A stretch of DNA of 37,369 bases. Origin: an uncultured bacterium (GTDB lineage Bacteria; Electryoneota; AABM5-125-24; Hatepunaeales; Hatepunaeaceae). The notes beneath the pieces were generated by a model, which was not told the DNA's origin, ran no database searches, and was given only the letters and a program-made list of their open reading frames with translations. The stretch covers positions 1-37,369 of the forward strand of contig CAZAGU010000009.1 of NCBI GenBank assembly GCA_964484805.1, in the 5' to 3' direction. Both the position numbers and the translations under genes were made by a program. Below are positions 2,322-36,958 of the stretch, piece after piece (position 1 is the first letter of the stretch; every line of letters begins with the position of its first letter).

Positions 2322-2432
2322 GTCTAACCTCCTGTGTAAATGCTTTAATAATCTAACACCATTTTCCTATTTACACAAAATTCAGACAGGCTCGTGTAAA
2401 TTGCATTAAAACACACCATATACACACCACGT

Positions 2433-2469
2433 AAAAAAAGCCCCCGGCTAAATAAATAGCTGAGGGCTT
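2433..2469 (-). terminator. Rho-independent terminator immediately 3' of tRNA-Glu.
   Basis: On the minus strand: AAGCCCTCAGCTA-tttatt-TAGCCGGGGGCTT followed by TTTTTTT. Confidence 0.7.
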
Positions 2470-2477
2470 AACTTGCG

Positions 2478-2549: not shown

Positions 2550-2647
2550 AAAATCCCCGTCAAACGAGGACTTTTATTTGAATCTAGAATCTAATCACGT
2601 TTACACTTTTCCGCAAGTATTCTCGCGAAAAATTTTAGCAGATTCGA

Positions 2648-12242: not shown

Positions 12243-12392
12243 TTCTGTGATTTTACCAGCAGACCTGGTCTGTTTTTGAATAGATTTTCAAGGTTCTCCG
12301 TTAAAAAATAACGGAGAACCCATTTGAATAAAATATGGGATCAAGGTGATCCCGATATCCCCAGCTCTCCAGCCCAGAATTCCTGACGGGGA

Positions 12393-16637: not shown

Positions 16638-16710
16638 GATAATTTATCCTCCACGTTTGCCCTGAAAAAGTTCGGGCAGTTAAAATTAATGAAATTTGCG
16701 CTGAGATTCG

Positions 16711-17931: not shown

Positions 17932-17945
17932 GTATTGAAATCCCC

Positions 17946-18839: not shown

Positions 18840-18840
18840 A

Positions 18841-20478: not shown

Positions 20479-20479
20479 G

Positions 20480-21745
20480 TCAGAACCTCTGCAGTAGTTG
20501 TTGCATCATGCGTTTGTTGTTAGCAAAATTCATTGCTGTTTCCTGTGAAATCTTATTCTCCCTGACCAGATTGATTAAATCCTGCTCCATTGTGATCATT
20601 CCAAATTTTGAACCCTCATTAATCATCTGGTAAATCTCGCCAATGTTACGATTTTTAATGGCTGAACGAATTGATGGCATCATAACCATGATTTCTTTCG
20701 CCAGCACACGCTTTCCATCCTTGCTGGGCACAAGCTTCTGCGAGATGACACAACGTAGAATATCGCCGAGACGATTGCGAACACGATCCTGTGCGATTGG
20801 CGGCATTTCGCCGATCACTCGCTCGATACTCTCGACGGCAGAAGAAGTATGCAACGTCGAAAAAACCTTATGCCCACTGTCTGCCGCTTCCAAGCCAGCC
20901 AGGACAGTGTCCGGGTCGCGCATTTCGCCGATGACAATGATGTCAGGGTCTTGACGGAGTGCTTCAACTGTGCCGGATTTGAATGACTGAGTATCTCTGC
21001 CGACTTCACGGTGGCGTATAATGCAACGCTGTGAATGATGGACAAATTCGACTGGTGAGGCGATGATGACGATATGCCCATCAATAGTGCGGTTATTCAT
21101 GTCAATGATAGCGTCAAGGGTTGTGCTTTTCCCAGAACCAGTGATTCCAGTAACCAGAATCAGCCCTTCTTTGGTGTGTGTCAGGCTGAGCGATTGCTGG
21201 AGGAAGGGATGAAAGTTAAAACCTTCAAAACTTCTGATTTGTGTCTGGATTGATCGCATGTTTAAGGCAAGTGAGCCAAGGTCGAGGTAGATGTCGGCTC
21301 GATTGCGGTGAACAACGCCATCCTTGCCGCGGAAATGATAGGAGAAGTCCAGATTGCTGTTTTCGTACAGGTGTGAACGTTGATCCTCGGTCAACAAATT
21401 CTGGATCAGAATGTCGAACTCCCCTGTTTCGTATCTGCCGAAAGCGGTGAAAGGTTTTTTCGCACCGTGTATCCTAAACCATACCGCGCCACCGGCTCCC
21501 CAGCCGCCAAGGTCTATATCTGAAGCTTCGCGTCGGCGCATTTCACTCAAGCAGTAGTCCACAAATTCTTTAAGCATCAGCCGGTCTTTGTCTGGCAATC
21601 GCCCGATAATTTCTTTCCCGATAAACATCTGTCGTTCGAGGCTCTGCATCGTTTGCGGAACACGATTGGAAAGACGCTGGAGTGCGGCTTTAATGATGCC
21701 AATATTGATGCTTAGAGTTGGTTTTTGATTCATCATTCCCACCAT
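20480..21745 (-). CDS. pilT: Twitching-motility retraction ATPase of the PilT/PilU family, with a ~70-aa N-terminal extension.
   Basis: Walker A LVTGITGSGKSTTLDA, Asp box, Walker B IIVIGEMRD, His box STLHTSSAVESIERV. It lacks the PilB-type zinc-binding N-domain. The start may be a few codons downstream (Met at 21733/21736). Confidence 0.8.
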   Translation of the reverse strand: MVGMMNQKPTLSINIGIIKAALQRLSNRVPQTMQSLERQMFIGKEIIGRLPDKDRLMLKEFVDYCLSEMRRREASDIDLGGWGAGGAVWFRIHGAKKPFTAFGRYETGEFDILIQNLLTEDQRSHLYENSNLDFSYHFRGKDGVVHRNRADIYLDLGSLALNMRSIQTQIRSFEGFNFHPFLQQSLSLTHTKEGLILVTGITGSGKSTTLDAIIDMNNRTIDGHIVIIASPVEFVHHSQRCIIRHREVGRDTQSFKSGTVEALRQDPDIIVIGEMRDPDTVLAGLEAADSGHKVFSTLHTSSAVESIERVIGEMPPIAQDRVRNRLGDILRCVISQKLVPSKDGKRVLAKEIMVMMPSIRSAIKNRNIGEIYQMINEGSKFGMITMEQDLINLVRENKISQETAMNFANNKRMMQQLLQRF

Positions 21746-22989
21746 GCCACAAGTTTGAGCGCTCTGACGAATGGGTAATTGGGCGGACTGGCGGCAGCAA
21801 GCCGCAGGTCATAGTGGTAGCGTTTGGAGAAGCCTGTCGCAATCTCGCCGGACCACCAGGAGAATGTTCCAACAGGCCCCCGTTCGTTCTGACCAATGCT
21901 TCCAGTCAGGTTCAATGCTCCTGAATTTGGGCGGGTTGAGTAGTCTTCAGCGTAAAATTTATCTCCAGCCATAATACTGGCGTTAATATTTATGTCGCTG
22001 TTATTTGCGGCATTGTTGGTTATGATAACATCATCAGCCGAAACCAGCCCCAGCAAGTCGTTTGAATTTGGATTAGCGCGTGGATCATCGGCGTAAACCA
22101 TATCATTATCAATCCAGATGTCTGCCCCTGAATACAATGTCACTGAACCGTTTAGAGTGCCTTGAACGTGTATGTCACCAGCGCAATAAATGACCCCAGT
22201 GGGTGCAATTGAAGCGACAGAAACCGTGTCAGGCGCTCCACCGTCAACGATGCGAATGACATTGCCATTTGGGAGAAATTCCAGACTAATGTCAACATCG
22301 TAGAGGCATTTTGTGTTCATTGTGGCTCCTGCGTTTCCTGCTACAGCGGCGTTGTGAAGTGGTGTCATATCCGTTGGCAAAGAAACATCCACACCGACCT
22401 CCCAACCGCCGTAGTACTTTGCTCGATTTCTTCGGCTGGTTGGGCTGGGGCTGAAGCCAAGTCTTGCCGTTACTTTTCCGTAAAACACTGGTGATCCGCT
22501 GGTTTTAATGGCGCTGTTGCAGTGCATCGGTCCTTCGACAGTGTCGCCGGAAATCCAGTATATATTGCTTGCGGCTGTGTTGACGAACCAGAAATAATTC
22601 GACACTGGTGTATGGTAGGCGAAATAGGCATAAATGGAATCTCGCAGGGACAAAGCTTTGCCGTCGGTGGCATATTGTTCTTCATCGTAAACTGCTGTTA
22701 TGGTGGTAACTTTGACAAAGACTGTGTCTAAACCCAGTGTGTCAATGACGACTAACGAAGTGCATGGGGGAGCAATAATGCTTAGTGTGTCTGACATGGC
22801 GTCATCTGCCCAGACATGGTTGATGCCAATGTTCATCGCGTTCATGGCGTTCTCGTGGAGAATAGTCTCCATGTAGCGACGGTTGAAGGCGCTCGAGGCT
22901 TCAACTGTCAGCTTGCTGAGTTGCATCTGGTACAATGAAAAAATCATTGAAATAGCAGCTACATAAATTAACGCTCCTTTCCCGAACAT
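21733..22989 (-). CDS. Hypothetical protein with an N-terminal hydrophobic helix, possibly pilus-associated (PilX/PilY-like position).
   Basis: 418 aa. The N-terminus MFGKGALIYVAAISMIFSLY is pilin-like but lacks Glu5. No recognisable catalytic motifs. It is embedded between the minor-pilin-like genes and pilT. Confidence 0.4.
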   Translation of the reverse strand: MFGKGALIYVAAISMIFSLYQMQLSKLTVEASSAFNRRYMETILHENAMNAMNIGINHVWADDAMSDTLSIIAPPCTSLVVIDTLGLDTVFVKVTTITAVYDEEQYATDGKALSLRDSIYAYFAYHTPVSNYFWFVNTAASNIYWISGDTVEGPMHCNSAIKTSGSPVFYGKVTARLGFSPSPTSRRNRAKYYGGWEVGVDVSLPTDMTPLHNAAVAGNAGATMNTKCLYDVDISLEFLPNGNVIRIVDGGAPDTVSVASIAPTGVIYCAGDIHVQGTLNGSVTLYSGADIWIDNDMVYADDPRANPNSNDLLGLVSADDVIITNNAANNSDININASIMAGDKFYAEDYSTRPNSGALNLTGSIGQNERGPVGTFSWWSGEIATGFSKRYHYDLRLAAASPPNYPFVRALKLVAWWE

Positions 22990-22998
22990 AAGCCCCTC

Positions 22999-23679
22999 CT
23001 ATCGTCTTAAATTCTTAGATATTACTCTGGTCTGCCGCCAGTATGATGCGCTTATCAATCTTTGAAGCATGACAATGCGTTCATCGGGATTTGCAGCCGC
23101 AAGTAGCTCGCTGCTGCGATAGATGTCAGGGTTCACGCAGATTAGAGTAACTTCAACCATTTTGGTTGCATCAACAATCGGCGCGGGTTGACCGATCTGA
23201 TCGAGATAGCGGAAAACTGAATTGTTGGCGATCAACCCGACAATACCGGTAACTGGAGTCTCCTGGGTTACCGAAACTGTTCGCGTGATGCTGTACATAA
23301 CCAGCGATGTATCGACGAAAACGACGGTGTCAAAAGGTGCGATCACATACTCGATGGTGTCTGGAACCTCATCCATGTGGAGATTCCCATGAATGTTAAA
23401 AAAGTAATCACGTTCTTTGTTCAGGTTGCTGATGAACTTCAAGTGTGTCGGCTGTGCGGTGACCAGAATAGTGTTTTGCTGAGATTCAGGGATGCCAAAG
23501 CCCATCTTCCGCAGGTCTTCCTGTAATATCTGGTTCAGATCAGCAAGTTCAATCTGCGCGATAGCATCGGCATTATAGTTGATAAAATGCTGAGTGGCGT
23601 TGTCGATGGCTTTAATTCCGACCAAAAGCAGGACTGAACCAATCATTGACGCTACTAATATGTCCCAGATTGTTCCCAT
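22999..23679 (-). CDS. Minor pilin-like protein.
   Basis: MGTIWDILVASMIGSVLLLVGIKAI has an N-terminal hydrophobic helix after a Gly, the pseudopilin-like architecture. It is located in the pilus operon. Confidence 0.4.
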   Translation of the reverse strand: MGTIWDILVASMIGSVLLLVGIKAIDNATQHFINYNADAIAQIELADLNQILQEDLRKMGFGIPESQQNTILVTAQPTHLKFISNLNKERDYFFNIHGNLHMDEVPDTIEYVIAPFDTVVFVDTSLVMYSITRTVSVTQETPVTGIVGLIANNSVFRYLDQIGQPAPIVDATKMVEVTLICVNPDIYRSSELLAAANPDERIVMLQRLISASYWRQTRVISKNLRR

Positions 23680-23686
23680 TACACCC

Positions 23687-24226
23687 TCAGTTGTAGAACC
23701 AGTAACTGACCACAGTGCTGATTCTTAATGTGTCTCGCATCCTTGCATTGCCGTTCATCGAGTAAATCATCGGTGGATTAAAGGCATCGCTGACGCTGAT
23801 TGTTACTCGTTTGTGCCATTGCCGCAAATCGGAATGCACTATCGCCCCTGAAGAAAGCCTGACGTATTCGACATTGTAGTCAACATGGTAAATCACACCG
23901 CTTATTCCAGTGTCCACCACTGTTGTCCCGTGCAGGTCATCAATGTCATCAACGACGGTGCTGTCATCGGCATCCCAGCCGAAATGTGCGGGCAGAGCGA
24001 AATCGCCGAGTGCCTTCTCTGAAGTAATGTCGGTTGAAACTTCGTCGAAGAAGTACTGTGAGAGTTGCTCAATATGGGAAGTCAGCACGGATAGCCCTTC
24101 AAGATGAAACCGGCTGAAATCCAGTGAAGTGCTAATATCGTTGGATGTCCGATAAAAGTTCATCACTAATACTGAAATCAACATCAATGCCCCGATGGTT
24201 AAAACAGATTGTCCTGTGCCACCCAT
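23687..24226 (-). CDS. Minor pilin-like protein.
   Basis: Start taken at the internal Met (MGGTGQSVLTIGALMLISVLVMNFY), which avoids overlap with pilB. It has an N-terminal hydrophobic helix. The ORF-track start at 24313 would overlap pilB by 77 bp. Confidence 0.4.
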   Translation of the reverse strand: MGGTGQSVLTIGALMLISVLVMNFYRTSNDISTSLDFSRFHLEGLSVLTSHIEQLSQYFFDEVSTDITSEKALGDFALPAHFGWDADDSTVVDDIDDLHGTTVVDTGISGVIYHVDYNVEYVRLSSGAIVHSDLRQWHKRVTISVSDAFNPPMIYSMNGNARMRDTLRISTVVSYWFYN

Positions 24227-24236
24227 GATTACCTCA

Positions 24237-26081
24237 TTAATCTGTTGTCGTTGTTCTTGCCAATTCCCTGAAATCGGTAGCCCCTTCAAGCACCCGTTCC
24301 CGCGCGGAATCACGAAGCGTTTTCATGCCGCCACGAATTGCTTCCTGCCGGATTACCTCCTCGTTAATATCCCCTTTGGCTTCAAAGATTAATTGGCGTA
24401 TTTTTTTACTGAAAAATAATGCTTCATGAATTGCCACGCGTCCTTTGTATCCGCCGTGGCAACGATCGCAACCGACGGCTTCGTAAAATGTGTTGTTGTC
24501 AATATCTTCATCCGAGAACCCCAGTGATTCAGGAATAACCCGCTCCATTTCAGTCATTGGTCGTTTGCAGTGCGAGCATAGCCGGCGCATGAGTCGCTGG
24601 GCGATGATGAGATTGATGGCGTAGGCGATCAGGAAGGTCTCAATGCCCATCTTGAACAAACGCGACACTGCGCTGGGCGCGTCGTTGGTGTGAAGTGTCG
24701 TGAAGGTCAAGTGCCCAGTGTTGGCGAGCTTGATCGCAGTTTCACCGGTCATCTTGTCGCGAATCTCACCCAGCATCACCACGTCAGGATCATGGCGGAG
24801 AATTGCCCGCAAAGCCAGCTCGAAGTCCATCTTCAAGCCGATCTTTAGCTGACGCACGCCGGGAATGATGTATTCCACCGGGTCTTCAACAGTCAACACA
24901 TTCACCTCAGGATTGACGATGTGACTGAGTGCGGCGATGAGCGTCGTGGACTTGCCACTGCCAGTGGGACCTGTTACGATGACCATACCTTGCGGTTGAT
25001 TGATGGCTTTCAGGAAAAAATCCTTGGCTGTGCCGTGTAGTCCCAGTTTGTCAAGGTCGGTGATGACTGAGCGGTCATCGAGGATTCGGATGACGATGCT
25101 CTCAAACTTGTACTGATATTCCTGACCAACGATAGGGATCGAAGAGAAGCGGAAACGGATGTTATGCCCATCAACTTTGCGCTGAATAAAACCATCCTGT
25201 GCCCGTTCGCGCTCGAAGCGGTCAACATTTTTCGCCCGGTCTTTCATTACCGCGGCGATGGCTTCAGGGCGAACGCCGTCTAATTCCTGCCAAGAACGCA
25301 ACATGCCGTCAACGCGAAACATGATGTTTGTTGAATTTGAGCTGACTGGTATAATATGAATATCACTTGCGCCAAGTCTGACGGCTTCGACAAGCATCCC
25401 CTCAGCAAGGTTGACCAGCATACTTTTGTTGATTTCAGCTTCAATCTCAGCTTCATCCAAATCCTCATCTTCCTGATCTAAATCATCAATTGCCAGGTCT
25501 TGTTCTTCGAGGTCTTTCAGAAACTGGTTTTCGGGAGGATAGATTTTGTCGAAGGTCATTTTAATTGTGCTGAGCCTGACGTAGCAGACCTCATAACTCT
25601 GAACCCGCATGGTTCGGGCGATGACGAGAATCATGCGGTCTGTGGGATCAGGTGAAACAAAGATCATTTTACCGGGGCGGTCTGGATCATAGCGATAAGG
25701 AAGGATATGCTTATTTAGCATATAATCGCGAGTTGATGCCGGTAATGACTCAAGCAGTTTTTTGATAAACACGACCCGCTTTTCGGGGACTTTCTTAGCG
25801 TCAATACTGATCTCACGGAAACCATAGATCGAAGCGACCTGAGAGAAGACTATATCGTGGTCAATGTTGAAATCATCAACAAGAATATTGGCAAGCCCGC
25901 GTTTGGATCGACGGTCATGAACATCGGCGTTAACTTTCTCCTTGCGGCGCAACGCTTCATCAATGATGTCTGACCCAACCAGCCCTTGTTTGACAAGACT
26001 GATCGCCAGCTTGTCTTTAATCTTCCAGCCAGTTTCCATTTGCTTAGTCAGTTCAACGTTTGGTTTCAACGGGGTTTGCAT
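24237..26081 (-). CDS. pilB: Type IV pilus assembly (extension) ATPase PilB, GspE family.
   Basis: Walker A VTGPTGSGKSTT, Walker B VVMLGEIRD, His box TLHTNDAPSAVSRL, and the tetracysteine zinc motif CSHCKRP...CDRCHGGYKGR. Confidence 0.85.
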   Translation of the reverse strand: MQTPLKPNVELTKQMETGWKIKDKLAISLVKQGLVGSDIIDEALRRKEKVNADVHDRRSKRGLANILVDDFNIDHDIVFSQVASIYGFREISIDAKKVPEKRVVFIKKLLESLPASTRDYMLNKHILPYRYDPDRPGKMIFVSPDPTDRMILVIARTMRVQSYEVCYVRLSTIKMTFDKIYPPENQFLKDLEEQDLAIDDLDQEDEDLDEAEIEAEINKSMLVNLAEGMLVEAVRLGASDIHIIPVSSNSTNIMFRVDGMLRSWQELDGVRPEAIAAVMKDRAKNVDRFERERAQDGFIQRKVDGHNIRFRFSSIPIVGQEYQYKFESIVIRILDDRSVITDLDKLGLHGTAKDFFLKAINQPQGMVIVTGPTGSGKSTTLIAALSHIVNPEVNVLTVEDPVEYIIPGVRQLKIGLKMDFELALRAILRHDPDVVMLGEIRDKMTGETAIKLANTGHLTFTTLHTNDAPSAVSRLFKMGIETFLIAYAINLIIAQRLMRRLCSHCKRPMTEMERVIPESLGFSDEDIDNNTFYEAVGCDRCHGGYKGRVAIHEALFFSKKIRQLIFEAKGDINEEVIRQEAIRGGMKTLRDSARERVLEGATDFRELARTTTTD

Positions 26082-26121
26082 TGTTCTTCTTTGCCTTTTC
26101 CTTTACTTGGATGTCCGAAAG

Positions 26122-27456
26122 CTAAAATCTACTCGGTTTTATGGTCGCTGTTTCGGTGGAAACGATTGTCAGCGCTGCCATCACAACCATAATCACAATG
26201 GCTATGATGATCTGCATGAAATCCACTATGTTCTTCAGTTTGTAAACGGTTTCCTTCTGATAATAATTCGCCAGTTGCAGGGCTGTTTGTTTGATAGTGC
26301 CGGTTTCCGCGCCTGAGTGGAAACGCGATAGCGCAGTCTTTGTGAAAACGCCTGTCGCCTCAAGGGCTTGCACCAGCCCAACGCCCTTAGACAACATCAG
26401 TGGGATGGCTACGGATTTAATCTGCCTTTCCATATATTTGTTGCCGCAGGCCTCGGCAGATAGTTTAATAGCATCGACACTCTCGCCAGAACCACTGTAA
26501 AGTGCATAAAAAACCCGGCAGAAGATCTCGATGGTTGTCTTGTGAATCAAGGATCCCATGATCGGCAATGAAAATAATAACTTGTCGCGATAGAGCTGCA
26601 CCTTCTGCATTTGCATGAGAAAGAATGCTCCCACACACATCGCCACGGTTATTATTGAGAGCACAACGATGTTTTCCAGAAGAAAATCGCTCATGTCCAT
26701 CGTTGCTTTGGTCATTGGCGGCAGTTCAATCCCCATTTGCACAAACATTTTTGCTGTTTCAGGGAAGATATACGCCACATAAAACATCACAGCACCGAAC
26801 ATCACAATTAGCGTGAATAGTGGCATGATGAGCGCGCTACGGATTGATTTTTTAAAGTCAGCCTGGCGCTCGAGGAAGGTGGCGGTGCTCTCATAAATAT
26901 CCGCCATGTTACCGCTTTTGGATGCTAACCCAAGCATTCGCGCTGTAAATTTACCAAGATATTTTTCCTGCCGAACGAAGGCTTCCTCGCTGTCTTTCCC
27001 ATGATGCAGATCATTGTTGACTTCTTTGATAGCTTCGCGCAGGCTGGCGTTTTCTATGTCATTGACCAGTAATTGTAGAATTTCATTGAACGGGAGTTTT
27101 TCACGCAATAGATCAGCGCTGACTCGAACGAAGGTAACAATATCTGTGTTGGGTGGTTTGCCGCGAAAATTAAATAACTTGGGTTTCACGCTGGTTACGG
27201 TGTAACCGAGCCGTTCTAAGGCAATCTTAACTTCTTCGGGAGTGAATGCTTTTTGCTGACCTGTGGATGGCGCTTCATTTCTGCGTGTTGCCCGGTAGGT
27301 GAAGACTCGGCGTTGGAAGATATGCTCGATTTTGAAGCGTTTGTTTTCGGCGAGTGTATGAATTTTCTCTTTTGCTCGCTTCAGGTTGTCGGCTTCAATG
27401 ATGCCATGAACCTTTCTACCGTTGAATGATATTCCTTCAAATCTGAAGTCTGGCAT
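26122..27456 (-). CDS. pilC: Type IV pilus inner-membrane platform protein PilC, GspF family.
   Basis: Duplicated GspF domain architecture with three TM segments. Conserved stretches such as LSIITVAMCVGAFFLM and ALSRFHSGAETG. Confidence 0.8.
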   Translation of the reverse strand: MPDFRFEGISFNGRKVHGIIEADNLKRAKEKIHTLAENKRFKIEHIFQRRVFTYRATRRNEAPSTGQQKAFTPEEVKIALERLGYTVTSVKPKLFNFRGKPPNTDIVTFVRVSADLLREKLPFNEILQLLVNDIENASLREAIKEVNNDLHHGKDSEEAFVRQEKYLGKFTARMLGLASKSGNMADIYESTATFLERQADFKKSIRSALIMPLFTLIVMFGAVMFYVAYIFPETAKMFVQMGIELPPMTKATMDMSDFLLENIVVLSIITVAMCVGAFFLMQMQKVQLYRDKLLFSLPIMGSLIHKTTIEIFCRVFYALYSGSGESVDAIKLSAEACGNKYMERQIKSVAIPLMLSKGVGLVQALEATGVFTKTALSRFHSGAETGTIKQTALQLANYYQKETVYKLKNIVDFMQIIIAIVIMVVMAALTIVSTETATIKPSRF

Positions 27457-27485: not shown

Positions 27486-27516
27486 AAAAACCGGAGGTAA
27501 GAGAACCTACCTCCGG
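27486..27516 (-). terminator. Strong rho-independent terminator after the pilin-like gene.
   Basis: Minus strand: CCGGAGGTA-ggttctct-TACCTCCGG followed by TTTTTAA. Confidence 0.8.
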
Positions 27517-27540: not shown

Positions 27541-27999
27541 TTAGTTAAGTATCTCACCCTCAATGGATGTAGCCGTCACAAGCGTATATACCATTGTTAG
27601 GTTGGTGTTGTCGCGTCCCTTTTCCGAGCCGTATCCAATGATATAAAGCGAGTCGGTATCAGCAGTAGCGATAGCAGTGTTTGCAGTTGCCGCGGCAGGA
27701 GCTGTTGTAGCTTTGCTGGCAGAAGTTGGCGCAGTTGTTGCGACTCTGAATTCCCCGTTCTGATTCGTTTGATCAAGTGAACCCAGCGTAAAGCCGTCAA
27801 AATCATTGCCTCCTCCACCCATCGTGGTCGGTTTTTTGAAATGTTGCTGAGCTTTAGAAGCAAGATGCGTTACATCTGATGAGAGCGAATTGCGATTGGC
27901 ATCTACAGCGCTGCTGGAAAACATGTTGATTCCAACTGCCACGGCAATCCCGACGATAATGACGCCGAGGACTAAAAGAAGTAGTTGTTGTTGACCCAT
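27541..27999 (-). CDS. Putative major structural subunit (pilin-like) with a non-canonical N-terminus. Sigma-54 dependent.
   Basis: MGQQQLLLLVLGVIIVGIAVAVGINMF forms a hydrophobic N-terminal helix. The C-terminal part is Thr/Ala/Gly-rich. AAAGGG RBS. There is a sigma-54 promoter ~140 bp upstream and a strong terminator downstream. An in-frame TGA 15 nt upstream rules out a longer leader. No GFTLIE motif. Confidence 0.5.
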   Translation of the reverse strand: MGQQQLLLLVLGVIIVGIAVAVGINMFSSSAVDANRNSLSSDVTHLASKAQQHFKKPTTMGGGGNDFDGFTLGSLDQTNQNGEFRVATTAPTSASKATTAPAAATANTAIATADTDSLYIIGYGSEKGRDNTNLTMVYTLVTATSIEGEILN

Positions 28000-28135: not shown

Positions 28136-28152
28136 AGCAACATGAATGCCAA
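28136..28152 (-). promoter_or_regulatory. Sigma-54 (-24/-12) promoter for the pilin-like gene.
   Basis: Minus strand reads TGGCATtcatgTTGCT, matching TGGCAC-N5-TTGCW with the invariant GG and GC. It lies ~137 bp upstream of the ATG at 27999. Confidence 0.75.
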
Positions 28153-28318: not shown

Positions 28319-28357
28319 TGTGTGAATATTGACGAGTGTGTGAATTGGGCCGGTAGA
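28319..28357 (-). promoter_or_regulatory. Putative enhancer (UAS) for the sigma-54 activator, copy A.
   Basis: GTGTGAAT-N~11-GTGTGTGAATTGGGCCGGTAGA lies ~185-220 bp upstream of the minus-strand sigma-54 promoter. The 22-mer recurs as an exact reverse complement at 31646-31667. Confidence 0.5.
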
Positions 28358-28466
28358 ATTTGGGCTATTGTTGGAAATGTTACAATCAAGAAGTTTTTTA
28401 TGTTTGAACTGTGATTAAAACCTTGCATTGTCTGGATCATAAATTTACCTTACTTAAAGTTAGCTT

Positions 28467-30173
28467 TTGTTAATTAAAAGAAAAGCTCAATGCTCTGACA
28501 ATGCTTCAAAGGACTTTGAAAAAATTGGTGAAATGACAGAAAAACAAAACCATATACATCTGATTGACTCAAATGCCGAACGATTTGAGACAGTCAGAAC
28601 TCTGTTGCTTTCATTCAATGTTCAGGCTTGGCATACCGAAGATGATTTCCTAAGGGATTCTGATGAGCTATGCTTAACCGTTTGGATGTGTCAGGAAGCA
28701 TCAGAGGCAACGCCAGAAAACCTGGGTCGAATGAACCCAGAAATCCCTCTTCTTGTCATCTTGTCAGACCCAAAGCGAATGGCTTCGTTGTTCAATCAAC
28801 TTGTGGAATCTGGCTTCAAGGAATACTTGCTGGACATTTTTCCTGCAATAGCACCACTTTCTCACATAGAATCGGCTAACTTGATTATGCAGGTGGTCGA
28901 AAAGCGACATGCTCAGACGGAATTGGATAAGCTCAAAGTTGAAATGGGCAACCTCCGAGCACAGACCAATCATTTCAATGACAGCATCAGACTGGGTATT
29001 GTACTCCACGACAAACAGGGATTGATTGTTTACGTCAATAATTTGGCAGCTAGAATATTCAAGCGACCGCCGGGTGAAATGCTGAATAAAACCCTGGTTG
29101 ACCCGATTTTTATGCCGCAGTATGCCGATGGATCGCTGGTCTCTCAAGCCAACCATCCATCTCATATTGCAGTAAGCGAGCGAATTGCGCAGAGGGGAAG
29201 CGCCTTTATCATGCTGGATGCCACTGGCGAGAAAAAATGGGTCGAGCTCAGAGCATTTCCACTGCCAGGGTATGGTAATAATAATAAAATTGTCGCCTGC
29301 ACCACGCTCAGGGATGTCAATGAGGTTAAGCGAGTCGAGAAAGAGCACAAGTCCTTTGTCAGAGATCGTTTGGATGCAGAGCGAAAGATGAGTGAATCGT
29401 TGCAACTATCTGAAGAGGCGGCGCGGCTGGCATCATTAGGTGTGATGGCGGCGGGTTTCACCCATGAGCTTAACCAACCACTCAATGCCATTCAGGTTCA
29501 TGCCGACACTGCGCTCTACCTTCAGCAGATCGGCAGGGTTAACCTTCCCGAATCCATTACCAACATCTTCAAGGGCATTCTTGAAGGTTCTAAGCGCATT
29601 GATGGCATCATCAAACATGTGCGTTCCTACTGGTCATCGCCTCAGTCGCAACCATTGCGAGTGCTTGATCTGAATGAATCAATCCGGAGTGCGTTGACTT
29701 TGACCGCAAGGAAGGTGCTGTCGCATTCAATAAAAATGGATTTGAACTTCACTGAGGAAGCATTGCCGATTTTGGCAAATGTTGCTCAACTGGAGCAGAT
29801 TGTCATTAACCTTCTAAATAATGCGGTCTATTCACTGGATCAGGTCGAATCTGAGGACAAACAGATATTAATTTCCACAGGCATTACAAGCGAACTCGGC
29901 ACAGCAAAGAAAATTATAGCGAATCATCCTGTGTCTGCCTATTTTCAAGTCGAAGATAATGGGATTGGCTTGCCGACAACAGATCTGACTGCATTGTTTG
30001 ATCCATTCAGGCATAAAGATCACACGGATGATAAGGCTGGGTTGGGATTGGCGATTGTGAACATGTTTGTTGGATATTTCAATGGCGCTATTCATGCCGA
30101 AAATAACCCAGATGGCGGCGCAACCTTCAGAGTCGCATTTCCGCTGGTAATCGGAAACATTACAGAGAAATAA
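28467..30173 (+). CDS. Soluble sensor histidine kinase (PilS/NtrB-like): N-terminal pseudo-receiver, PAS, HisKA, HATPase_c.
   Basis: PAS region (IVLHDKQGLIVYVNNLAARIF...). H-box MAAGFTHELNQPLNAIQ. N-box LLNNAVYSL. G-boxes EDNGIGL and GLGLAIV. No TM segments. Alternative start at 28533 (GGTGA RBS). Confidence 0.8.
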   Translation: MLIKRKAQCSDNASKDFEKIGEMTEKQNHIHLIDSNAERFETVRTLLLSFNVQAWHTEDDFLRDSDELCLTVWMCQEASEATPENLGRMNPEIPLLVILSDPKRMASLFNQLVESGFKEYLLDIFPAIAPLSHIESANLIMQVVEKRHAQTELDKLKVEMGNLRAQTNHFNDSIRLGIVLHDKQGLIVYVNNLAARIFKRPPGEMLNKTLVDPIFMPQYADGSLVSQANHPSHIAVSERIAQRGSAFIMLDATGEKKWVELRAFPLPGYGNNNKIVACTTLRDVNEVKRVEKEHKSFVRDRLDAERKMSESLQLSEEAARLASLGVMAAGFTHELNQPLNAIQVHADTALYLQQIGRVNLPESITNIFKGILEGSKRIDGIIKHVRSYWSSPQSQPLRVLDLNESIRSALTLTARKVLSHSIKMDLNFTEEALPILANVAQLEQIVINLLNNAVYSLDQVESEDKQILISTGITSELGTAKKIIANHPVSAYFQVEDNGIGLPTTDLTALFDPFRHKDHTDDKAGLGLAIVNMFVGYFNGAIHAENNPDGGATFRVAFPLVIGNITEK

Positions 30174-31609
30174 TGCAGATATTATTAGTTGACGACGATA
30201 ATTTCGCTCGCGAAGCCATAGCAAATTTCCTCGTAACTGCTCTGGATCATCAGATTGTTCAAGCCGAGAACGGCAAGGATGCCTTAGTGCTATTCGAACA
30301 GGAAGAGTTCCCGATTGTCATCACAGATATTAGAATGCCTGGCATGAGTGGACTGGAACTTCTGAAATCCATTAAGTCAACCCCAAAGGGAAGAGCAAGT
30401 TGTGTCGTTTTAGTTACTGGTTTTTCTGATCTTAATTCGGCCGTGTTTGCTTTGCGAGAAGGTGCCTTTGACTATCTCAGCAAACCAATAGATGTAATGG
30501 AACTTGCGGGAGTAATTAATCGCTGGGAAGCGACGAATTTGAAAATCCATGATGACTCCTTCAATGTAGCTAAAACCATCAAGAAGTCTGTTCATAGCTC
30601 TCTGGCAGATTTTAAACTAGAGAACAGCGTTTTTCGAGAGGTATCTGGAGTAGGAAAAGTGGGGCTGTTTTCAGATGCTTTAAAAACGGCAGTAATTCTG
30701 GCTCTGAGGTTTCATGACGACAGAAATGTTCCTGTTCTGATCGAGGGTGAAACTGGCACCGGTAAGGAGGTGCTTGCCAGAGTTGTTCATCAGGGCAATA
30801 TGACAGAACCACCGCCATTTATTTCGGTGAACTGTTCTGCACTCTCGCCGTCGCTGATTGAAAGCGAGTTGTTTGGATATGAGAGCGGATCATTTACAGG
30901 TGCCAATAGCAAGGGCTCGAAAGGTAAACTGGAACTTGCTCAAGGGAGTACACTTTTCCTCGATGAAATTGGTGAAATGCCAATGGAGCTACAGCCAAAG
31001 TTGCTGCGAGCTTTACAGGAACGAGAGATATATCGAATTGGCGGTCAGAAACCGATCAAACTTGATGTGCGGTTTATTGCTGCCACAAACCGCGATCTGC
31101 TCAAATGTACTCAGGATGGGACATTCAGGAAAGACCTCTACTATCGCTTGAATTTGGGACGGATTTACCTGCCACCACTCAGGGAACAACGCGAGTCAAT
31201 CGTGCCATTGGCACATCTATATTTGATCCAGTTTTCTGCTGAAAAGAAGAGACGTTTCCGCTTTATTGAGAAAGAGGCTATGCGAACTCTGGAAGAGTAC
31301 GACTGGCCAGGTAATGTTCGTGAATTGAGAAATACAATTGAAAGAATCACTGTGTTTTACGATGAGTTTGAGCTTCGGGCTGAGCATCTGGATTTTCTTG
31401 GGCAGTTAGACCAGCCTGCGCCTAAGGATTCCGGTAGCGTTCTCAAGCTCGGTCAGATAGTTTTACCGCCTGATAAACTTAATCTGCAAGATGTCGAGAA
31501 CGAGATTGTTACCAAGGCGATGGAAATGTTCAGCAACAATCAGACCCGTGCCGCAGAATATCTTGGTCTGTCCCGCCATGCACTGCGAACAAGACTTAAT
31601 CGAAACTGA
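30173..31609 (+). CDS. pilR: Sigma-54-dependent response regulator of the NtrC/PilR family (REC, AAA+ sigma-54 activator, HTH).
   Basis: MQILLVDDD...DIRMPGMSGLELL...DYLSKP (receiver). GETGTGKE (Walker A). ESELFGYESGSFTGA (GAFTGA sigma-54 contact motif). GTLFLDEIGEMP (Walker B). C-terminal HTH (TRAAEYLGLSRHALRTRL). Confidence 0.85.
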   Translation: MQILLVDDDNFAREAIANFLVTALDHQIVQAENGKDALVLFEQEEFPIVITDIRMPGMSGLELLKSIKSTPKGRASCVVLVTGFSDLNSAVFALREGAFDYLSKPIDVMELAGVINRWEATNLKIHDDSFNVAKTIKKSVHSSLADFKLENSVFREVSGVGKVGLFSDALKTAVILALRFHDDRNVPVLIEGETGTGKEVLARVVHQGNMTEPPPFISVNCSALSPSLIESELFGYESGSFTGANSKGSKGKLELAQGSTLFLDEIGEMPMELQPKLLRALQEREIYRIGGQKPIKLDVRFIAATNRDLLKCTQDGTFRKDLYYRLNLGRIYLPPLREQRESIVPLAHLYLIQFSAEKKRRFRFIEKEAMRTLEEYDWPGNVRELRNTIERITVFYDEFELRAEHLDFLGQLDQPAPKDSGSVLKLGQIVLPPDKLNLQDVENEIVTKAMEMFSNNQTRAAEYLGLSRHALRTRLNRN

Positions 31610-31645
31610 GCATTTTAAGGTTAGATTTCACACTTTAGAAACGAA

Positions 31646-31683
31646 TCTACCGGCCCAATTCACACACCTGTAACAATTCACAC
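31646..31683 (+). promoter_or_regulatory. Putative enhancer (UAS) for the sigma-54 activator, copy B.
   Basis: TCTACCGGCCCAATTCACACAC-N8-ATTCACAC lies ~220-255 bp upstream of the plus-strand sigma-54 promoter at 31901. It is the reverse complement of copy A and so has the same orientation relative to its promoter. Confidence 0.5.
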
Positions 31684-31900
31684 CCCTTGCTTTGGATTGA
31701 CTTGATTATAAATTGCACTATAATTATTCCTATAAAAATGCCATTGCATAAGTGGCTGTTCTCGCCTGCATTCTAGGACGCAAGAGGACATAAGAACGGA
31801 CTTGCCGGATACTAAACTCAAAACAAACTCCAGACTTCATCCCACTTGTTTCACCTGAATACTAACGCTCAGACAAGACGCATTTGAGAATCTTAACTCT

Positions 31901-31918
31901 CTGGCACAATGGTTGCAA
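31901..31918 (+). promoter_or_regulatory. Sigma-54 (-24/-12) promoter for the receiver / V4R-like / REC-PATAN operon.
   Basis: CTGGCACaatggTTGCAaat is a perfect TGGCAC-N5-TTGCA. It lies ~50 bp upstream of the ATG at 31970. Confidence 0.75.
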
Positions 31919-31969: not shown

Positions 31970-32377
31970 ATGCGAATTCTACTGATTGACGATCATTCAT
32001 TAGTGCTCAGTAGCATCTCAAATGCGCTTGAACTATTTAACCATCAATGTGATGCCTTTCAAAGCCCCAAAATGGCGCTTGAGATGGTGGATGAAAACCG
32101 CTATGATGTGGCAATAGTTGACTACAGTATGATCGAGATGAATGGTGTGGAGGTTATTAACGTAATCCACGAGAAAGATGCTCAGGTTAAATTGATTTTA
32201 ATGAGTGGGTATGGCGATGTTGCCAGCGAAGTTTTAAGTCAAGGGCAACATGTTCACGCGTTTTTTACCAAACCCCTTAAAATTGTCAATCTTATTGAAA
32301 CGCTTGAACAAATTAATCGGGATAAATACTTTAATTTCGGCGAGCTTAGTTTTCATCATGCTGTGCTTTGTCATTAG
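31970..32377 (+). CDS. Single-domain CheY-like response regulator.
   Basis: MRILLIDDHSLV..., phospho-acceptor Asp in VAIVDYSM, and the conserved Lys in FFTKPL. GTGAGG RBS. The ORF-track start at 31913 is probably too long. Confidence 0.75.
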   Translation: MRILLIDDHSLVLSSISNALELFNHQCDAFQSPKMALEMVDENRYDVAIVDYSMIEMNGVEVINVIHEKDAQVKLILMSGYGDVASEVLSQGQHVHAFFTKPLKIVNLIETLEQINRDKYFNFGELSFHHAVLCH

Positions 32378-32414: not shown

Positions 32415-32963
32415 ATGACATTAGAAATGGAACTTCCACAGCATTTGGATATACAAACCTTCACCGATTATTTAATGAATAATCTGAACAACAGGTCAAA
32501 CCATTACTTTCTTGCGGTTTATACCCAAATTGCTGGTCGCATACCCATGAGTGGCACGGCAAAGATACTGACGGATATTTCCGAAGAAGTCTTTTATTCG
32601 AGTCTGAAAACCTTGATGGAGTCGGATCATGCCAGCACAATTCCCCATCGATTTTACATCGCGGAATTATACTACGCTGCCGTGGGACTCGGGAAGTTAA
32701 AATTCAACCTGGAAAAAAATGAAGGCATATTATCTCACTCGATGCTCGATAACGCTTGGATAAGATTATTCAGCACTTCAACAACGCCGATCAACTTTGT
32801 AACATCGGGCTATATAGCGGCGACTTTTGGACTCGTTTTTGGGAAACCACTGCATAGCTACCGGGTTTCTGAGAAAAAAAGTATTGCCTGTGGTGAATCA
32901 TTTTCGATTTTCAAGATTCAACGAGCGGAAGATGTGATTAAAACCCTCTTGTCTGTGAACTGA
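32415..32963 (+). CDS. Hypothetical protein with a C-terminal V4R-like (4-vinyl reductase / hydrocarbon-binding) domain.
   Basis: The C-terminal region SGYIAATFGLVFGKPLHSYRVSEKKSIACGESFSIFKI resembles the V4R consensus (G...G......E.kC...G...C.F.I), with the second Cys replaced by Ser. The assignment is tentative. Confidence 0.4.
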   Translation: MTLEMELPQHLDIQTFTDYLMNNLNNRSNHYFLAVYTQIAGRIPMSGTAKILTDISEEVFYSSLKTLMESDHASTIPHRFYIAELYYAAVGLGKLKFNLEKNEGILSHSMLDNAWIRLFSTSTTPINFVTSGYIAATFGLVFGKPLHSYRVSEKKSIACGESFSIFKIQRAEDVIKTLLSVN

Positions 32964-33018: not shown

Positions 33019-34899
33019 ATGAAAGAAGGAAACGTGTCAGAGCAAATTGTTGAGCAAAAACAGCCCATAGAAAATGAGCAGACTGCTTCGGCAAATTCAT
33101 CGTCCCAAAGTTTGCTGGATGACGATGGTACAGGACTGCCAAAGGTTCTGATTGTCAATCAACTCAGACCAATTACAGATATGGTGCGCAACTTCTGCCA
33201 GCAATATAGCGAGGAATTCTCTCTCGTTGCTTCAAATCGTCCCGATGGCATTTTGACCACCCTGGAAGAACATCAGGACGTAAAACTGATCGTTACGGAC
33301 TATCGGTTACTGGCTGAGCAGGGTGTGGATATTATAGATCAGGTCAGAGAGGTTTATCCATACATTCATTTCATTTTAATGCCGGGGCATGAGACAGAGG
33401 AGTGTGTTGAAAAAGTAGATGGATTGGGCTTTGTGCGTTCGTTGACTGCGCCATTCGGAATGCCGGAACTTGTTCGCACAATCAGAGAGATACTCCCTTT
33501 GACCGTCAGCCTCACCGACGTTTTAAATCTTGCAATGGCGAGTGGTGGCGGGACTTTGATAAAAATTTCTTGCTCAGAGGGATCGGGTGAAATTGAATTC
33601 GCAAATGGAGAAATCGTACACGCTGAAGTGGGTGAATTAACCGGCGCTGAAGGCTTTTTCAAAATAGCCAGTTGGCAGAATATCGAATTTGATCTTTGCG
33701 ATCCACCCAAGAAACGGGAGCGCACGATCTACCACTCGTTGGATCAACTCTGGGCGGAAGCTTCTCAGAGACGGAACCAGATTGCCGATGAAACAAGCTC
33801 AACACACCGAATCATTTCAGATGAGACCTGCCGATCTGATGCCCATGTTCTTGACGATACAATATCTACTAAAAGGGAAGCTGGAGATTTTAACAAGCCG
33901 TTGCCGACCGGCATGAATGAGGCAATAAATAATTTTGCTGGTTTTACTACGGGTTTTAGCGAAGAATTGCCTGAATCACTTCCTGCTGAGCCGCGACATT
34001 CGACTGGTTCTCCCTGGGACAACCTTTTCATCGAGGACATTGCCAAGCCTTTTGATGTTGAAGACATTCTCTCTGAGGAAGGAACGCTTTTCACAAATGA
34101 AATGCCTGTTTTTGGTGAGCTTGGAATAGAAGACCTCAACGCTGAATCCTGCGTAAATTATTATCAGGATATATTTCCTGCTGGAATAGATGTCTTGAAC
34201 ATCGAAGAGTTACCTTTGCAAAATCTAGAGCCGTTGCTGAAGCGGCATTTAGTTTGCAAACTTCAGTGGAGTGCAAGCTCAATAGTTCATACGGAGAATG
34301 CCCCGTTTAGCCTCGAAAATCCGAGAATTGCCGCGGCGGTTTCAAACTTACAAAATGCTGTGTTTCGGTATTGGCGGTTATCGCGAAGTGATTTCACTGA
34401 GTTGCTCTGGGAAGCGGCTATTTTTCACCTCGCGCGCTCGCTGAATCCTTGCGGAACGGTGGCTGAATACCTGCATAATCACTGTGAAGGCAAGCTAAAC
34501 CGCATGAAGGATTTTCTCAGCATGATGCTGATCCGACAGGTGCTGGAGTCTGAATATCAACCACTTTATCAGATTATATCCGGCTACGAGTCAAAAACAT
34601 ACAGCCGCGCCAGTATTCCAGCCAGCAAGATATCTGAGCAATTCCGCAATTATTTCTCCGAGAATGTCGATGATATTCTGAGCATCGAAATGCCGCTGGC
34701 AATTAAACGCATTCTGGAAATAAACGCCATTGGGAACGACAATCCGCCTCAGTCTATTCAGCAACATATTTTGATCGAAATGCTTCAGAAGCGAGGGCTT
34801 TGGGATGCGGCAGATTACATCCGACAGGTGTTGCCCGAGCCTGACGCTGGGGTCAGTCTGCCAGTTTATCATCAGCTGTTGAGGAATTTTATCCTTTAA
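33019..34899 (+). CDS. Multidomain regulator: atypical receiver, a DUF4388/PATAN domain, and a ~330-aa acidic C-terminal region of unknown function.
   Basis: REC-like region (VLIVNQLRP...KLIVTDYRL, with the conserved Lys replaced in SLTAPF). It is followed by LTDVLNLAMASGGGTLIKISCSEGSGEIEFANGEIVHAEVGELTGAEGFFKIASWQNIEFDL, which matches the DUF4388 pattern (G.L.......GEI.F..G.IVHA...G..G..A......W..G.F.F). Confidence 0.6.
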   Translation: MKEGNVSEQIVEQKQPIENEQTASANSSSQSLLDDDGTGLPKVLIVNQLRPITDMVRNFCQQYSEEFSLVASNRPDGILTTLEEHQDVKLIVTDYRLLAEQGVDIIDQVREVYPYIHFILMPGHETEECVEKVDGLGFVRSLTAPFGMPELVRTIREILPLTVSLTDVLNLAMASGGGTLIKISCSEGSGEIEFANGEIVHAEVGELTGAEGFFKIASWQNIEFDLCDPPKKRERTIYHSLDQLWAEASQRRNQIADETSSTHRIISDETCRSDAHVLDDTISTKREAGDFNKPLPTGMNEAINNFAGFTTGFSEELPESLPAEPRHSTGSPWDNLFIEDIAKPFDVEDILSEEGTLFTNEMPVFGELGIEDLNAESCVNYYQDIFPAGIDVLNIEELPLQNLEPLLKRHLVCKLQWSASSIVHTENAPFSLENPRIAAAVSNLQNAVFRYWRLSRSDFTELLWEAAIFHLARSLNPCGTVAEYLHNHCEGKLNRMKDFLSMMLIRQVLESEYQPLYQIISGYESKTYSRASIPASKISEQFRNYFSENVDDILSIEMPLAIKRILEINAIGNDNPPQSIQQHILIEMLQKRGLWDAADYIRQVLPEPDAGVSLPVYHQLLRNFIL

Positions 34900-35338: not shown

Positions 35339-35672
35339 ATGTGCCGCCGCGAGTGTGTCGTCGGGGTTGTTGGAATGGGCTATGTAGGATTGCCGCTCGC
35401 GCTGGAGTATGCAGAAAAAGGCTTTTCTGTGCTTGGATTTGATATAGATGTGAAAAAAGTCGGAGCGCTCAATTCCGGCGAAACCTACATCAAGCATATC
35501 CCGAAGCACGCAATAAAAGCCGCTGTCGATAGTGGAAAGCTCGTGGCGACGACGGACTTGCAATGGACTTCAGGGTGTGATGCAATACTAATCGCTGTGC
35601 CAACGCCACTGCCTTCACACACTACGCCTGCACCCAAATTCATGGATGCAGGACGCAGAGCGATAGGCCCAG
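35339..35672 (+). pseudogene. Nucleotide-sugar dehydrogenase (UDP-glucose/GDP-mannose dehydrogenase family) N-terminal fragment, interrupted after about 110 aa.
   Basis: VVGVVGMGYVGLPLALEYAEKGFSVLGFDIDVKKVGALNSGETYIKHI...ILIAVPTPL...AIGPGL matches the NAD-binding Rossmann N-domain of the TviB/WbpA/Ugd family (GxGYVGLPLA, VPTP). Similarity stops at ~35672, where the TTTTTACA repeat tract begins. The rest of ORF 35339..36055 is read-through with no similarity. Confidence 0.6.
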
Positions 35673-35675
35673 GGC

Positions 35676-35708
35676 TTACATTTTTACATTTTTACACGGT
35701 TTTTTACA
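35676..35708. repeat. Tandem TTTTTACA repeats (about 4 copies) at the dehydrogenase/insert junction.
   Basis: cTTACATTTTTACATTTTTACAcggTTTTTTACAct. It overlaps the stop codon of the minus-strand 62-aa gene. Confidence 0.6.
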
Positions 35709-35892
35709 CTCTTGCTTTAACTTCATCAAGGAGTACTTCGCAATGTGCCTTTATGTTTGAAGAGTTGGAATGCAAGCCAGCAAGGTATTTATACCCTTCG
35801 GAACCTTCGTCTAAGCTACACATCATGGCATTTACCTCGTCATCAAGCTTTTTAAGCTCTCCAACGATATATTCTAAAAAATCTTTGTCCAT
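35704..35892 (-). CDS. Small hypothetical protein (62 aa) downstream of the PrimPol-like gene.
   Basis: MMDKDFLEYIVGELKKLDDEVNAMMCSLDEGSEGYKYLAGLHSNSSNIKAHCEVLLDEVKARV. AAGGA lies upstream of the ATG. It starts 5 bp after the PrimPol stop. The ORF-track version 35704..36063 is extended upstream into the PrimPol gene. Confidence 0.45.
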   Translation of the reverse strand: MDKDFLEYIVGELKKLDDEVNAMMCSLDEGSEGYKYLAGLHSNSSNIKAHCEVLLDEVKARV

Positions 35893-35896
35893 CATT

Positions 35897-36958
35897 TTAA
35901 TCCTGTCCTTTAACATACTGAACACCAGCTTTGGCATACAAGAACCTAAGAGCACTGTTACGATTAAAACCCCTAAAAGCAACAAGATAGTCCCAAGGCA
36001 AGTACATGGATCCATCTCTGAAAGCATAAACAGTTCCACGGACCCTGCCAAGTGACTGAGCACCGTTCCAAACTCTCATACTGGGATGAAGATCACCCGT
36101 TTCACTTCTAAGATCTTTGCAGTTAACCCATAGTTTACTGTCTGAGTACGCAACTAAACGATCTCCGTAAATCCACCGAGGGTCAACTTTTTCAAGAGCA
36201 TTTTTAATGCTATAATAAGTCCCTTGGTTCAATTTGTCGCAATTTGTAAGAAATTGATTGTTGCTGTCGCCATTTTTTTCTTTAGGAATTTGAGAGTCTA
36301 ATTCCTGACAAGCTCTAAGAAAATCTCCTGCATGGTTGCAGGCAATGAAATTAGGATCGCTGAATTTCTCAATGATCTGCTCTTTTTTCTGATAGCTAAG
36401 AGTATGACAGAAGGGATACCACAAATTCCCTCCGAAATCCCTAGCTGACAATGGGAAGTTGTCAATAGAAACACCAGAGCAAAGCGACTTCGAAGCAGTG
36501 ATGAGCAAAGAAATTGGAACGACACGATCCAATAGAATATAAATGTGAATTCCCTTTCCGGTGTCCGAGGGCAACTCCATGAACTTTATCTTTGCCTTGT
36601 TTGCAAACATGACGAAGGCTTCATAAGCATTTCTGTTGAAATCATCTTTGTGATCATCAAAGTCGAGACAGACAAACCTAAACAAACCATGTGCTTCATT
36701 GAGATACCGCCCGACTTTAATTTCAGCGTTGCGCATTTTACCGCCAACGCTAGAGACCATATCACAGCGAGTGCCTAAAACATGGTATCTCAGATAATCA
36801 AGTGGATTTCCTTCAACTCTGAGATGCACCAAAGATCCATCTCGTTTGAAAATCCTCACTGGGAATGTATCTCTGCGAATTGTTGTCATCTCACAGAACT
36901 CCCCGAAATTATTATAAGCTTGCGCTTTAGCAGTTTTACCTTTAAAAATTACAGTCAT
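35897..36958 (-). CDS. Primase-polymerase (archaeo-eukaryotic primase superfamily, PrimPol/LigD-Pol-like) protein. Likely the replication-initiation protein of an integrated element.
   Basis: Three AEP motifs with canonical spacing: motif I FVCLDFDDH (hhhDhD), motif II ELPSDTGKGIHIYILLD (sGxGxHxY, as in SGSKGLHLYVPL of LigD-Pol), motif III SGVSIDNF (hD). No similarity in the C-terminal ~180 aa. It is preceded by a (GAAAGGAA)x3 leader and iteron-like repeats. Confidence 0.55.
   Translation of the reverse strand: MTVIFKGKTAKAQAYNNFGEFCEMTTIRRDTFPVRIFKRDGSLVHLRVEGNPLDYLRYHVLGTRCDMVSSVGGKMRNAEIKVGRYLNEAHGLFRFVCLDFDDHKDDFNRNAYEAFVMFANKAKIKFMELPSDTGKGIHIYILLDRVVPISLLITASKSLCSGVSIDNFPLSARDFGGNLWYPFCHTLSYQKKEQIIEKFSDPNFIACNHAGDFLRACQELDSQIPKEKNGDSNNQFLTNCDKLNQGTYYSIKNALEKVDPRWIYGDRLVAYSDSKLWVNCKDLRSETGDLHPSMRVWNGAQSLGRVRGTVYAFRDGSMYLPWDYLVAFRGFNRNSALRFLYAKAGVQYVKGQD

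Follow-up and report, generated by a model that had tools for sequence, protein, structure and literature searches.

Two copies of a four-unit module as probable enhancers of divergent sigma-54 promoters in an uncultured bacterium

Introduction

The DNA described here, termed the window, is a stretch of 37,369 nucleotides from an uncultured bacterium of the Electryoneota (assembly GCA_964484805.1) and makes up the entire contig CAZAGU010000009.1. Part of the window encodes a sensor kinase and an NtrC-type activator of sigma-54-dependent transcription. These two genes lie between two inverted copies of a 64-nt module, and outside each copy is a sigma-54 type promoter that faces away from the pair. 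The left promoter faces a type IV pilus-like operon, and the right promoter faces an operon that begins with a gene for a single-domain receiver. The modules are probably enhancers, also known as upstream activating sequences (UAS), bound by the activator encoded between them. Coordinates are those of the window unless they are preceded by the label of another locus.

The sensor kinase and the activator

The sensor kinase gene spans 28533-30173 on the plus strand and overlaps the activator gene, which spans 30173-31609 on the same strand. The kinase is a soluble protein of the PAS-HisKA-HATPase type, and Pfam recognizes only PAS, HisKA, and HATPase_c domains in it. It has no transmembrane segment (the maximum Kyte-Doolittle 19-residue average is 1.47). 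The N-terminal ~150 amino acids are without a family match. By eye, this N-terminus (28533-29000, plus strand) resembles a degenerate receiver domain without the acidic pocket. The best NCBIfam model for the kinase is AtoS, which scores 117 against a cut-off of 646.

The activator is composed of REC, AAA+, and Fis-type helix-turn-helix (HTH) domains, as assigned from Pfam, sequence motifs, and an HTH alignment. The Pfam matches include Sigma54_activat (4.9e-62) and HTH_8 (7.9e-9). The protein possesses a Walker A motif at position 192, the motif GSFTGA at position 239, a receiver aspartate, and the recognition helix SRHALRTRL. Judged by these domains and motifs, it is competent to act as a sigma-54 enhancer-binding protein. 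The best NCBIfam models are AtoC (366 bits, cut-off 714) and NtrC (347 bits, cut-off 559), both below cut-off, and none of the top 25 NCBIfam matches is a PilR model. Homologues of the activator are found in uncultured FCB-group bacteria with designations such as Zixibacteria-like, "Candidatus Tariuqbacter", and "FCB group bacterium".

The repeated modules

The 22-mer GTGTGTGAATTGGGCCGGTAGA is found at 28336-28357 on the plus strand and at 31646-31667 on the minus strand. The initial annotation had described the two copies as exact reverse complements, and they are. A third match with three or fewer mismatches is absent from the 37-kb window, and none of 100 dinucleotide-preserving shuffles of the window produced a 22-mer match. 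Chance is excluded as the source of the pair. A metagenome scan with the exact 22-mer as the query returned 0 matches. The pattern GTGTGAAT-N10-GTGTGAAT has 16 specified bases, which is too few, and it returned at least 120 unrelated matches in a scan of the genome collection; the contig of the window was not among the matches listed.

The repeat is longer than the 22-bp motif that was first described. A repeat finder extends it to an inverted repeat of 64 nt, 28320-28383 against 31620-31683, in which 47 of 64 positions are identical. The sequence GTGTGAAT has four copies in the 37 kb, at 28320, 28338, 31658, and 31676, and all four are inside the two modules. A second half-site had been placed on the far side of the 22-mer from the promoter; in both copies, the second GTGTGAAT is instead on the promoter-proximal side. 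The promoter-distal side of the 22-mer carries an extra unit, GTTGGAAA in the left module and GTGTGAAA in the right.

Each module is made up of four units with a consensus of roughly (G/C)AWTTC-N-AC, and the 22-mer corresponds to unit 3 and most of unit 2. The right module (31620-31683, plus strand) begins 11 nt past the activator stop codon. Its units are unit 1 GATTTCACAC at 31624-31633, unit 2 GAATCTACCG at 31643-31652, unit 3 CAATTCACAC at 31656-31665, and the promoter-proximal unit 4, also CAATTCACAC, at 31674-31683, all on the plus strand. The left module (28320-28383) is on the minus strand, with unit 1 at 28370-28379, unit 2 at 28351-28360, unit 3 at 28338-28347, and the promoter-proximal unit 4 at 28320-28329. 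Read on the minus strand, the left module has the same orientation as the right one. Alternate units are 31-32 bp apart, or about three helical turns.

The mismatches between the two 64-nt copies lie in the spacers, which appear near-random, and the four units are conserved. A run of 22 identities among 47 identical positions of 64 has P=0.003 under random placement of the mismatches. This block-wise conservation of the units beside near-random spacers points to selection on the units and not to recent duplication.

Sigma-54 promoters and spacing

Only two perfect matches to TGGCAY-N5-TTGCW are present in the window. Both are outside the repeat pair and are directed outward. The left -24/-12 promoter, TGGCATTCATGTTGCT at 28136-28151 on the minus strand, precedes the pilin-like gene by 136 nt. 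The right one, TGGCACAATGGTTGCA at 31902-31917 on the plus strand, is 52 nt upstream of the receiver gene. Two near-perfect -24/-12 elements had already been annotated at these places, with coordinates that were off by about one base.

The modules are located 169-232 bp (left) and 219-282 bp (right) upstream of the promoters, within the range of roughly 80-300 bp expected of UAS. For the 22-mers alone, the distances are 185-206 bp and 235-256 bp, in agreement with the earlier statement that the motifs lie 185-255 bp upstream in matching orientation.

A near-consensus sigma-70-type promoter, TTGACT-16-TATAAT (11/12), is found at 31697-31724 on the plus strand, directly past the right module, with the right sigma-54 promoter about 180 bp further downstream. 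The receiver operon may have a second promoter here, or the match may be due to chance, the DNA being AT-rich.

Orthologous loci

Six independent loci from uncultured FCB-group bacteria, labeled L001, L003, L005, L127, L128, and L129, were compared with the window. Their activators are 58-74% identical to that of the window. All six have the gene order kinase, activator, gap, small receiver, and in all six a sigma-54 promoter precedes the receiver gene, in most cases 60-71 nt from the receiver start. A homologue of the module, ~65 nt in length, is located just past the activator stop codon in five of the six (L003, L005, L127, L128, and L129). These orthologous modules are 195-307 bp upstream of the promoter, and the GC content of the intergenic regions ranges from 29 to 50%. 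Each of the five loci has one copy only, past the activator gene, and none has a copy upstream of the kinase. When the five orthologous modules are aligned with the two of the window, the ATTT, AC, and CCG columns are invariant in all seven.

A profile made from the five orthologous modules, with the window left out, returns the window modules as its top matches and in the expected orientations. The right module is the best match (E=4.5e-5, plus strand) and the left module is the second best (E=4.5e-3, minus strand). When weaker hits on the opposite strand of these two modules are set aside, the match that follows has E=0.2. As a control, the seven-copy profile was run against unrelated loci (0.9 Mb) and NtrC-family paralogue loci (0.6 Mb), and no match in either set was better than E=0.5. 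The paralogue loci were taken from a metagenome scan with the activator protein and contain paralogues that are 33-40% identical or short fragments that are 57% identical.

The HTH regions of the activators are highly conserved overall, and the recognition helices fall into a few types. The helix is SRHAL(R/Q)TRL in the window, L001, and L128; SRQTLRT(R/L)L in L003, L005, and L129; and SRHSLRTLL in L127. The units of the module are of the CACAC type in the window and L128, and of the ACAGTTG/ACAATTG type in L003, L005, and L129. This comparison of sequences is suggestive of a unit sequence that tracks the recognition helix of the activator.

The small receiver downstream of the activator is 30-57% identical to the window receiver in all six orthologous loci. 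The receiver genes are located at 31970-32377 in the window, L001 3150-3560, L128 8067-8468, L003 7848-8216, L005 8099-8470, L127 7837-8214, and L129 7265-7633. The phospho-acceptor aspartate is kept in the window, L001, and L128. In L003, L005, L127, and L129 the position is occupied by A or T, making these proteins pseudo-receivers. The receiver aspartate is split among the loci in almost the same way as the recognition helix.

The cassette does not reach the clade of Ancylomarina longa: in locus L213 of this organism, whose activator is 52% identical, the synteny and the recognition helix both differ and the module is absent.

Several features are particular to single loci. The N-terminal sensor domains of the orthologous kinases are quite different: that of L128 is a periplasmic binding domain, and the L127 and L129 kinases have additional PAS domains. 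A consensus site for IHF (integration host factor) is present at the same position in L003 (AATCAGTGTGTTG, 7677-7689) and L005 (AATCAATGCATTA, 7677-7689), and the sigma-54 promoter follows about 95 bp further on. Just upstream of the kinase in L129 are an ISL3-family transposase gene (1465-2412, minus strand) and a 98-aa fragment of a sigma-54 activator (2847-3143, plus strand), which suggests a rearrangement near that cassette.

The pilus operon

The first gene past the left promoter encodes a pilin-like protein of 152 aa, MGQQQLLLLVLGVIIVGIAVAVGIN..., at 27541-27999 on the minus strand. The protein begins MGQQQLLLLVLGVIIVGIAVAVGINMFSSSAVDANR and lacks a canonical prepilin leader and a G/FTLIE-type cleavage motif. 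It has a strongly hydrophobic N-terminal helix (maximum Kyte-Doolittle 19-residue average 3.18) and no Pfam or NCBIfam match. Residues 7-55 match Geobacter PilA-N weakly (E=0.011). A single-sequence AlphaFold model has a mean pLDDT (predicted local distance difference test) of 43.6, which is too poor for a fold search, and only the long N-terminal helix is credible. Based on its sequence, the protein looks like a member of an undescribed pilin class.

Between the pilin gene and the PilC-like gene is a strong hairpin that resembles an intrinsic terminator, at 27491-27516 on the minus strand; its stem has 11 pairs (7 G-C), and a T run follows. The hairpin suggests that pilin is produced at a high level while read-through into the machinery genes is attenuated. 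The remainder of the type IV pilus-like cluster spans 15384-27456 on the minus strand. It encodes T2SSF and T2SSE proteins, two proteins without assignment, a DUF4900-like protein, a second T2SSE ATPase, a PilN-like protein, another unassigned protein, a secretin, and a REC-HDOD protein.

Three related pilus clusters (L130, L131, and L132) were found through PilC homologues that are 70-74% identical. The names attached to PilC homologues include Calditrichia and KSB1. The three clusters have the same gene order and the same MGQQQLLL... pilin gene in first place (L130 7443-7883, L131 7450-7899, and L132 7356-7811), and the N-terminal ~60 residues of the pilin are nearly identical in all three. 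Their upstream neighbors are unrelated genes. None of the three has a neighboring activator, a module, or a GG-N10-GC promoter within three mismatches of the consensus. With both elements missing from these clusters, the module and the sigma-54 promoter occur at pilus clusters jointly or not at all.

The REC-HDOD gene (15384-16637, minus strand) closes the pilus cluster of the window. In L128, HDOD genes at 2160-3704 and 11042-12430 flank the kinase-activator-receiver cassette. A functional association of HDOD proteins with this cassette is possible.

The receiver operon

The operon past the right promoter is on the plus strand and is made up of three genes. The first encodes the single-domain receiver (31970-32377), the second a 182-aa protein (32415-32963), and the third a protein with REC and DUF4388/PATAN domains (33019-34899), as assigned by Pfam. 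The 182-aa protein has no Pfam, NCBIfam, or PDB match, and its initial description as V4R-like could not be confirmed.

Function of the modules

The arrangement points to the two 64-bp modules as enhancers for the NtrC-type activator encoded between them, and this is considered the likely function. The sequence has the marks expected of UAS: a downstream promoter that faces a gene, a suitable distance, an AAA+/GAFTGA-type activator with an HTH, multiple sites, and conservation. The enhancer reading is preferred because the module is conserved beside orthologous activators, is absent together with the promoter from related pilus clusters, and tracks the recognition helix. The initial annotation had proposed shared UAS for the adjacent NtrC-family activator, and that part is well supported by the modules in five of six orthologous loci, by their absence from pilus clusters without the activator, and by the tracking of the helix. 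The identity of the pair as PilS-like and PilR-like is not upheld, since the kinase is soluble, the best matches of the activator are AtoC and NtrC, the orthologues are unlinked to pili, and TGT-N11-AGA is absent.

Some observations weigh against the enhancer function. L001 is the closest locus (74% identity, same recognition helix) and is without the module; its promoter starts 51 bp past the stop codon. For the link between helix and unit there are six lineages, which fall into two or three groups, and shared ancestry alone could explain it. The core of the unit, GAAWTC, is nearly palindromic, and the module profile also scores on the reverse strand. The sites may thus be arranged as direct repeats or as dyad repeats. 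No IHF consensus is present between module and promoter in the window.

The left copy could also serve mainly as an operator for autoregulation of the kinase-activator operon, with enhancement of the pilin promoter secondary or absent. About 150 bp separate the end of the left module from the kinase start codon at 28533, and unit 1 is adjoined by a TAnnTTTG-like element (TATGTTTG, 28399-28406). In the orp cluster of Desulfovibrio vulgaris, the activator site overlaps the activator's own sigma-70 promoter and provides negative feedback (PMC3897727). This role overlaps with that of an enhancer and is not exclusive of it. As the main function of the left copy, autoregulation is rather unlikely. 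The pilin gene is faced by a near-consensus sigma-54 promoter 169 bp past the module, and neither element is present in the related pilus clusters. For the kinase, a consensus scan turned up no convincing sigma-70 promoter, and the five module-bearing orthologous loci are without a second copy upstream of their kinases.

Binding of the modules by another DNA-binding protein, e.g., a global regulator or a nucleoid protein, with the activator nearby only by coincidence, is possible but clearly less probable again. The sequence GTGTGAAT contains a TGTGA half-site typical of CRP/FNR-type regulators, but the TGTGA-N6-TCACA dyad is absent. Moreover, the module follows the activator clade across intergenic regions of 29-50% GC, always upstream of a sigma-54 promoter, and is absent from NtrC paralogue loci. 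Its unit sequence changes with the recognition helix of the activator.

Two specific site types were rejected as candidates. A CRP/FNR-type site would require the missing dyad. For a NifA-type site, TGT-N10-ACA is found once, at 28369, in left unit 1 only, and is not shared by the right copy.

The inverted copies bracket a 3.3-kb segment of two genes, as would the ends of a mobile kinase-activator cassette or the recombination sites of an invertible segment. This origin is rejected as highly improbable. No transposase or recombinase domain turned up in Pfam scans of most of the larger open reading frames (ORFs), which together cover most of the window, and the flanking sequences, CAGTCT and CCCTTG, show no target-site duplication. 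In orthologues the module is present once, at a constant place relative to the activator gene, and conservation follows the units and does not run outward from the repeat ends. Inversion would reconnect no promoter because both sigma-54 promoters are outside the repeats. An RNA element (a 3' untranslated region, terminator, or small RNA of the activator transcript) would fit the right copy, 11 nt past the activator stop codon and in the same place in orthologues, but it is likewise rejected as very improbable: both copies fold no better than shuffled sequence on both strands (z-scores -0.08 to +1.05), no Rfam match or terminator-like site overlapping either module was found, and no equivalent transcript is expected for the left copy in its divergent promoter region.

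Proposed mechanism and origin

With the modules as enhancers, activation would begin with phosphorylation of the activator by the soluble PAS kinase. The phosphorylated activator would assemble on the four units of a module and reach the flanking promoter by looping over 170-280 bp of AT-rich DNA. There, on each side, it would open the sigma-54 holoenzyme complex at the -24/-12 promoter at the expense of ATP. Transcription from the left promoter would cover the pilin-like gene and in part continue into the genes of the pilus machinery, and the right promoter would drive the operon of the receiver, the 182-aa protein, and the REC-PATAN protein. The left module, about 150 bp from the kinase start codon, may also autoregulate the kinase-activator operon.

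From the comparison of loci, the ancestral cassette of the activator clade probably consists of the receiver gene and, upstream of it, the right promoter and the right module. The left module and left promoter were probably added in this lineage alone, which would bring the pilus operon under the same control. A tentative account of the locus, rated a little below an even chance, is that enhancer duplication rewired the regulon. The old cassette would have gained an inverted copy of its enhancer and a new sigma-54 promoter, thereby capturing a pilus-like operon that is otherwise sigma-54-independent. As part of the same tentative account, the old cassette would comprise the PAS kinase, the NtrC-type activator, the four-unit enhancer, the sigma-54 promoter, and the single-domain receiver, conserved across uncultured FCB-group lineages. 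The lone receiver as the conserved target, with its aspartate lost in several lineages, suggests a built-in feedback partner.

Other genes in the window

The other ORFs of the window with a family match are ordinary chromosomal genes, e.g., hrcA-grpE-dnaJ. A 238-aa ORF at 35339-36055 on the plus strand contains the N-terminal domain only of a UDP-glucose dehydrogenase. It is overlapped by a 353-aa ORF at 35897-36958 on the minus strand with a weak primase-like AEP-TOTE match (E=1.7e-4, below cut-off). The overlapping pair, 35339-36958, may represent a disrupted gene or an insertion.

Significance

The locus provides a testable cis-regulatory map of a two-component sigma-54 system in uncultured FCB-group bacteria, with module boundaries, four units, and two target promoters. 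The map ties this system to an unusual type IV pilus-like cluster whose pilin is without a canonical prepilin leader. The locus is also a natural comparison of enhancer copying to recruit a new operon. This is an ordinary kind of bacterial gene control, and the understanding of sigma-54 activation is unchanged.

Comparison with known systems

AtoS-AtoC and NtrC are the best-scoring named families, AtoC and NtrC for the activator and AtoS for the kinase. In Escherichia coli, atoSC is followed directly by its target operon, atoDAEB, and the binding sites lie between the two. At glnAp2, the two strong NtrC sites are spaced by about 32 bp (three turns), like the alternate units of the window modules. 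The scores are far below the equivalog cut-offs, however, and the targets differ. The site sequences are unrelated, and no NtrC-type TGCACC half-site is present at the locus.

The PilS-PilR system also has a two-component NtrC-type activator beside pilus genes, several upstream sites, and a major pilin gene driven from a sigma-54 promoter, the last observed here at the level of sequence. PilS is a six-helix membrane protein, whereas the kinase of the window is soluble and PAS-based. The orthologues of the window activator are linked to a small receiver gene and not to pili, and the pilus clusters related to that of the window are without sigma-54 control. PilS-PilR systems of Pseudomonas, Geobacter, Myxococcus, and Dichelobacter are reported to have larger regulons, and the hallmarks of their sites are TGT-N11-AGA and GTCT/(C/G)TGTC (PMC6058289). 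TGT-N11-AGA is found in neither intergenic region of the window locus, and a single GTGTC is present, outside the modules.

The closest precedent is the orp cluster of D. vulgaris, where the activator DVU2106 (OrpR) is encoded between the divergent sigma-54 operons orp1 and orp2 and has a binding site on each side (PMC3897727). Both loci have an enhancer-binding protein gene between divergent sigma-54 operons and a copy of the site upstream of each -24/-12 promoter. In both, one of the sites may provide feedback on expression of the activator itself. The orp sites are palindromes located about 90-130 bp from the start sites and are IHF-dependent (PMC3897727). The window modules, in contrast, have four units, are 170-280 bp upstream, lack an IHF consensus, and would serve a pilus operon and a receiver operon. 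Unlike the activator of the window, which is paired with a kinase, OrpR does not serve as the response regulator in a co-encoded two-component pair. The architecture is already known in kind from the orp precedent, and the modestly interesting twist is the second enhancer copy, which would have recruited a pilus operon.

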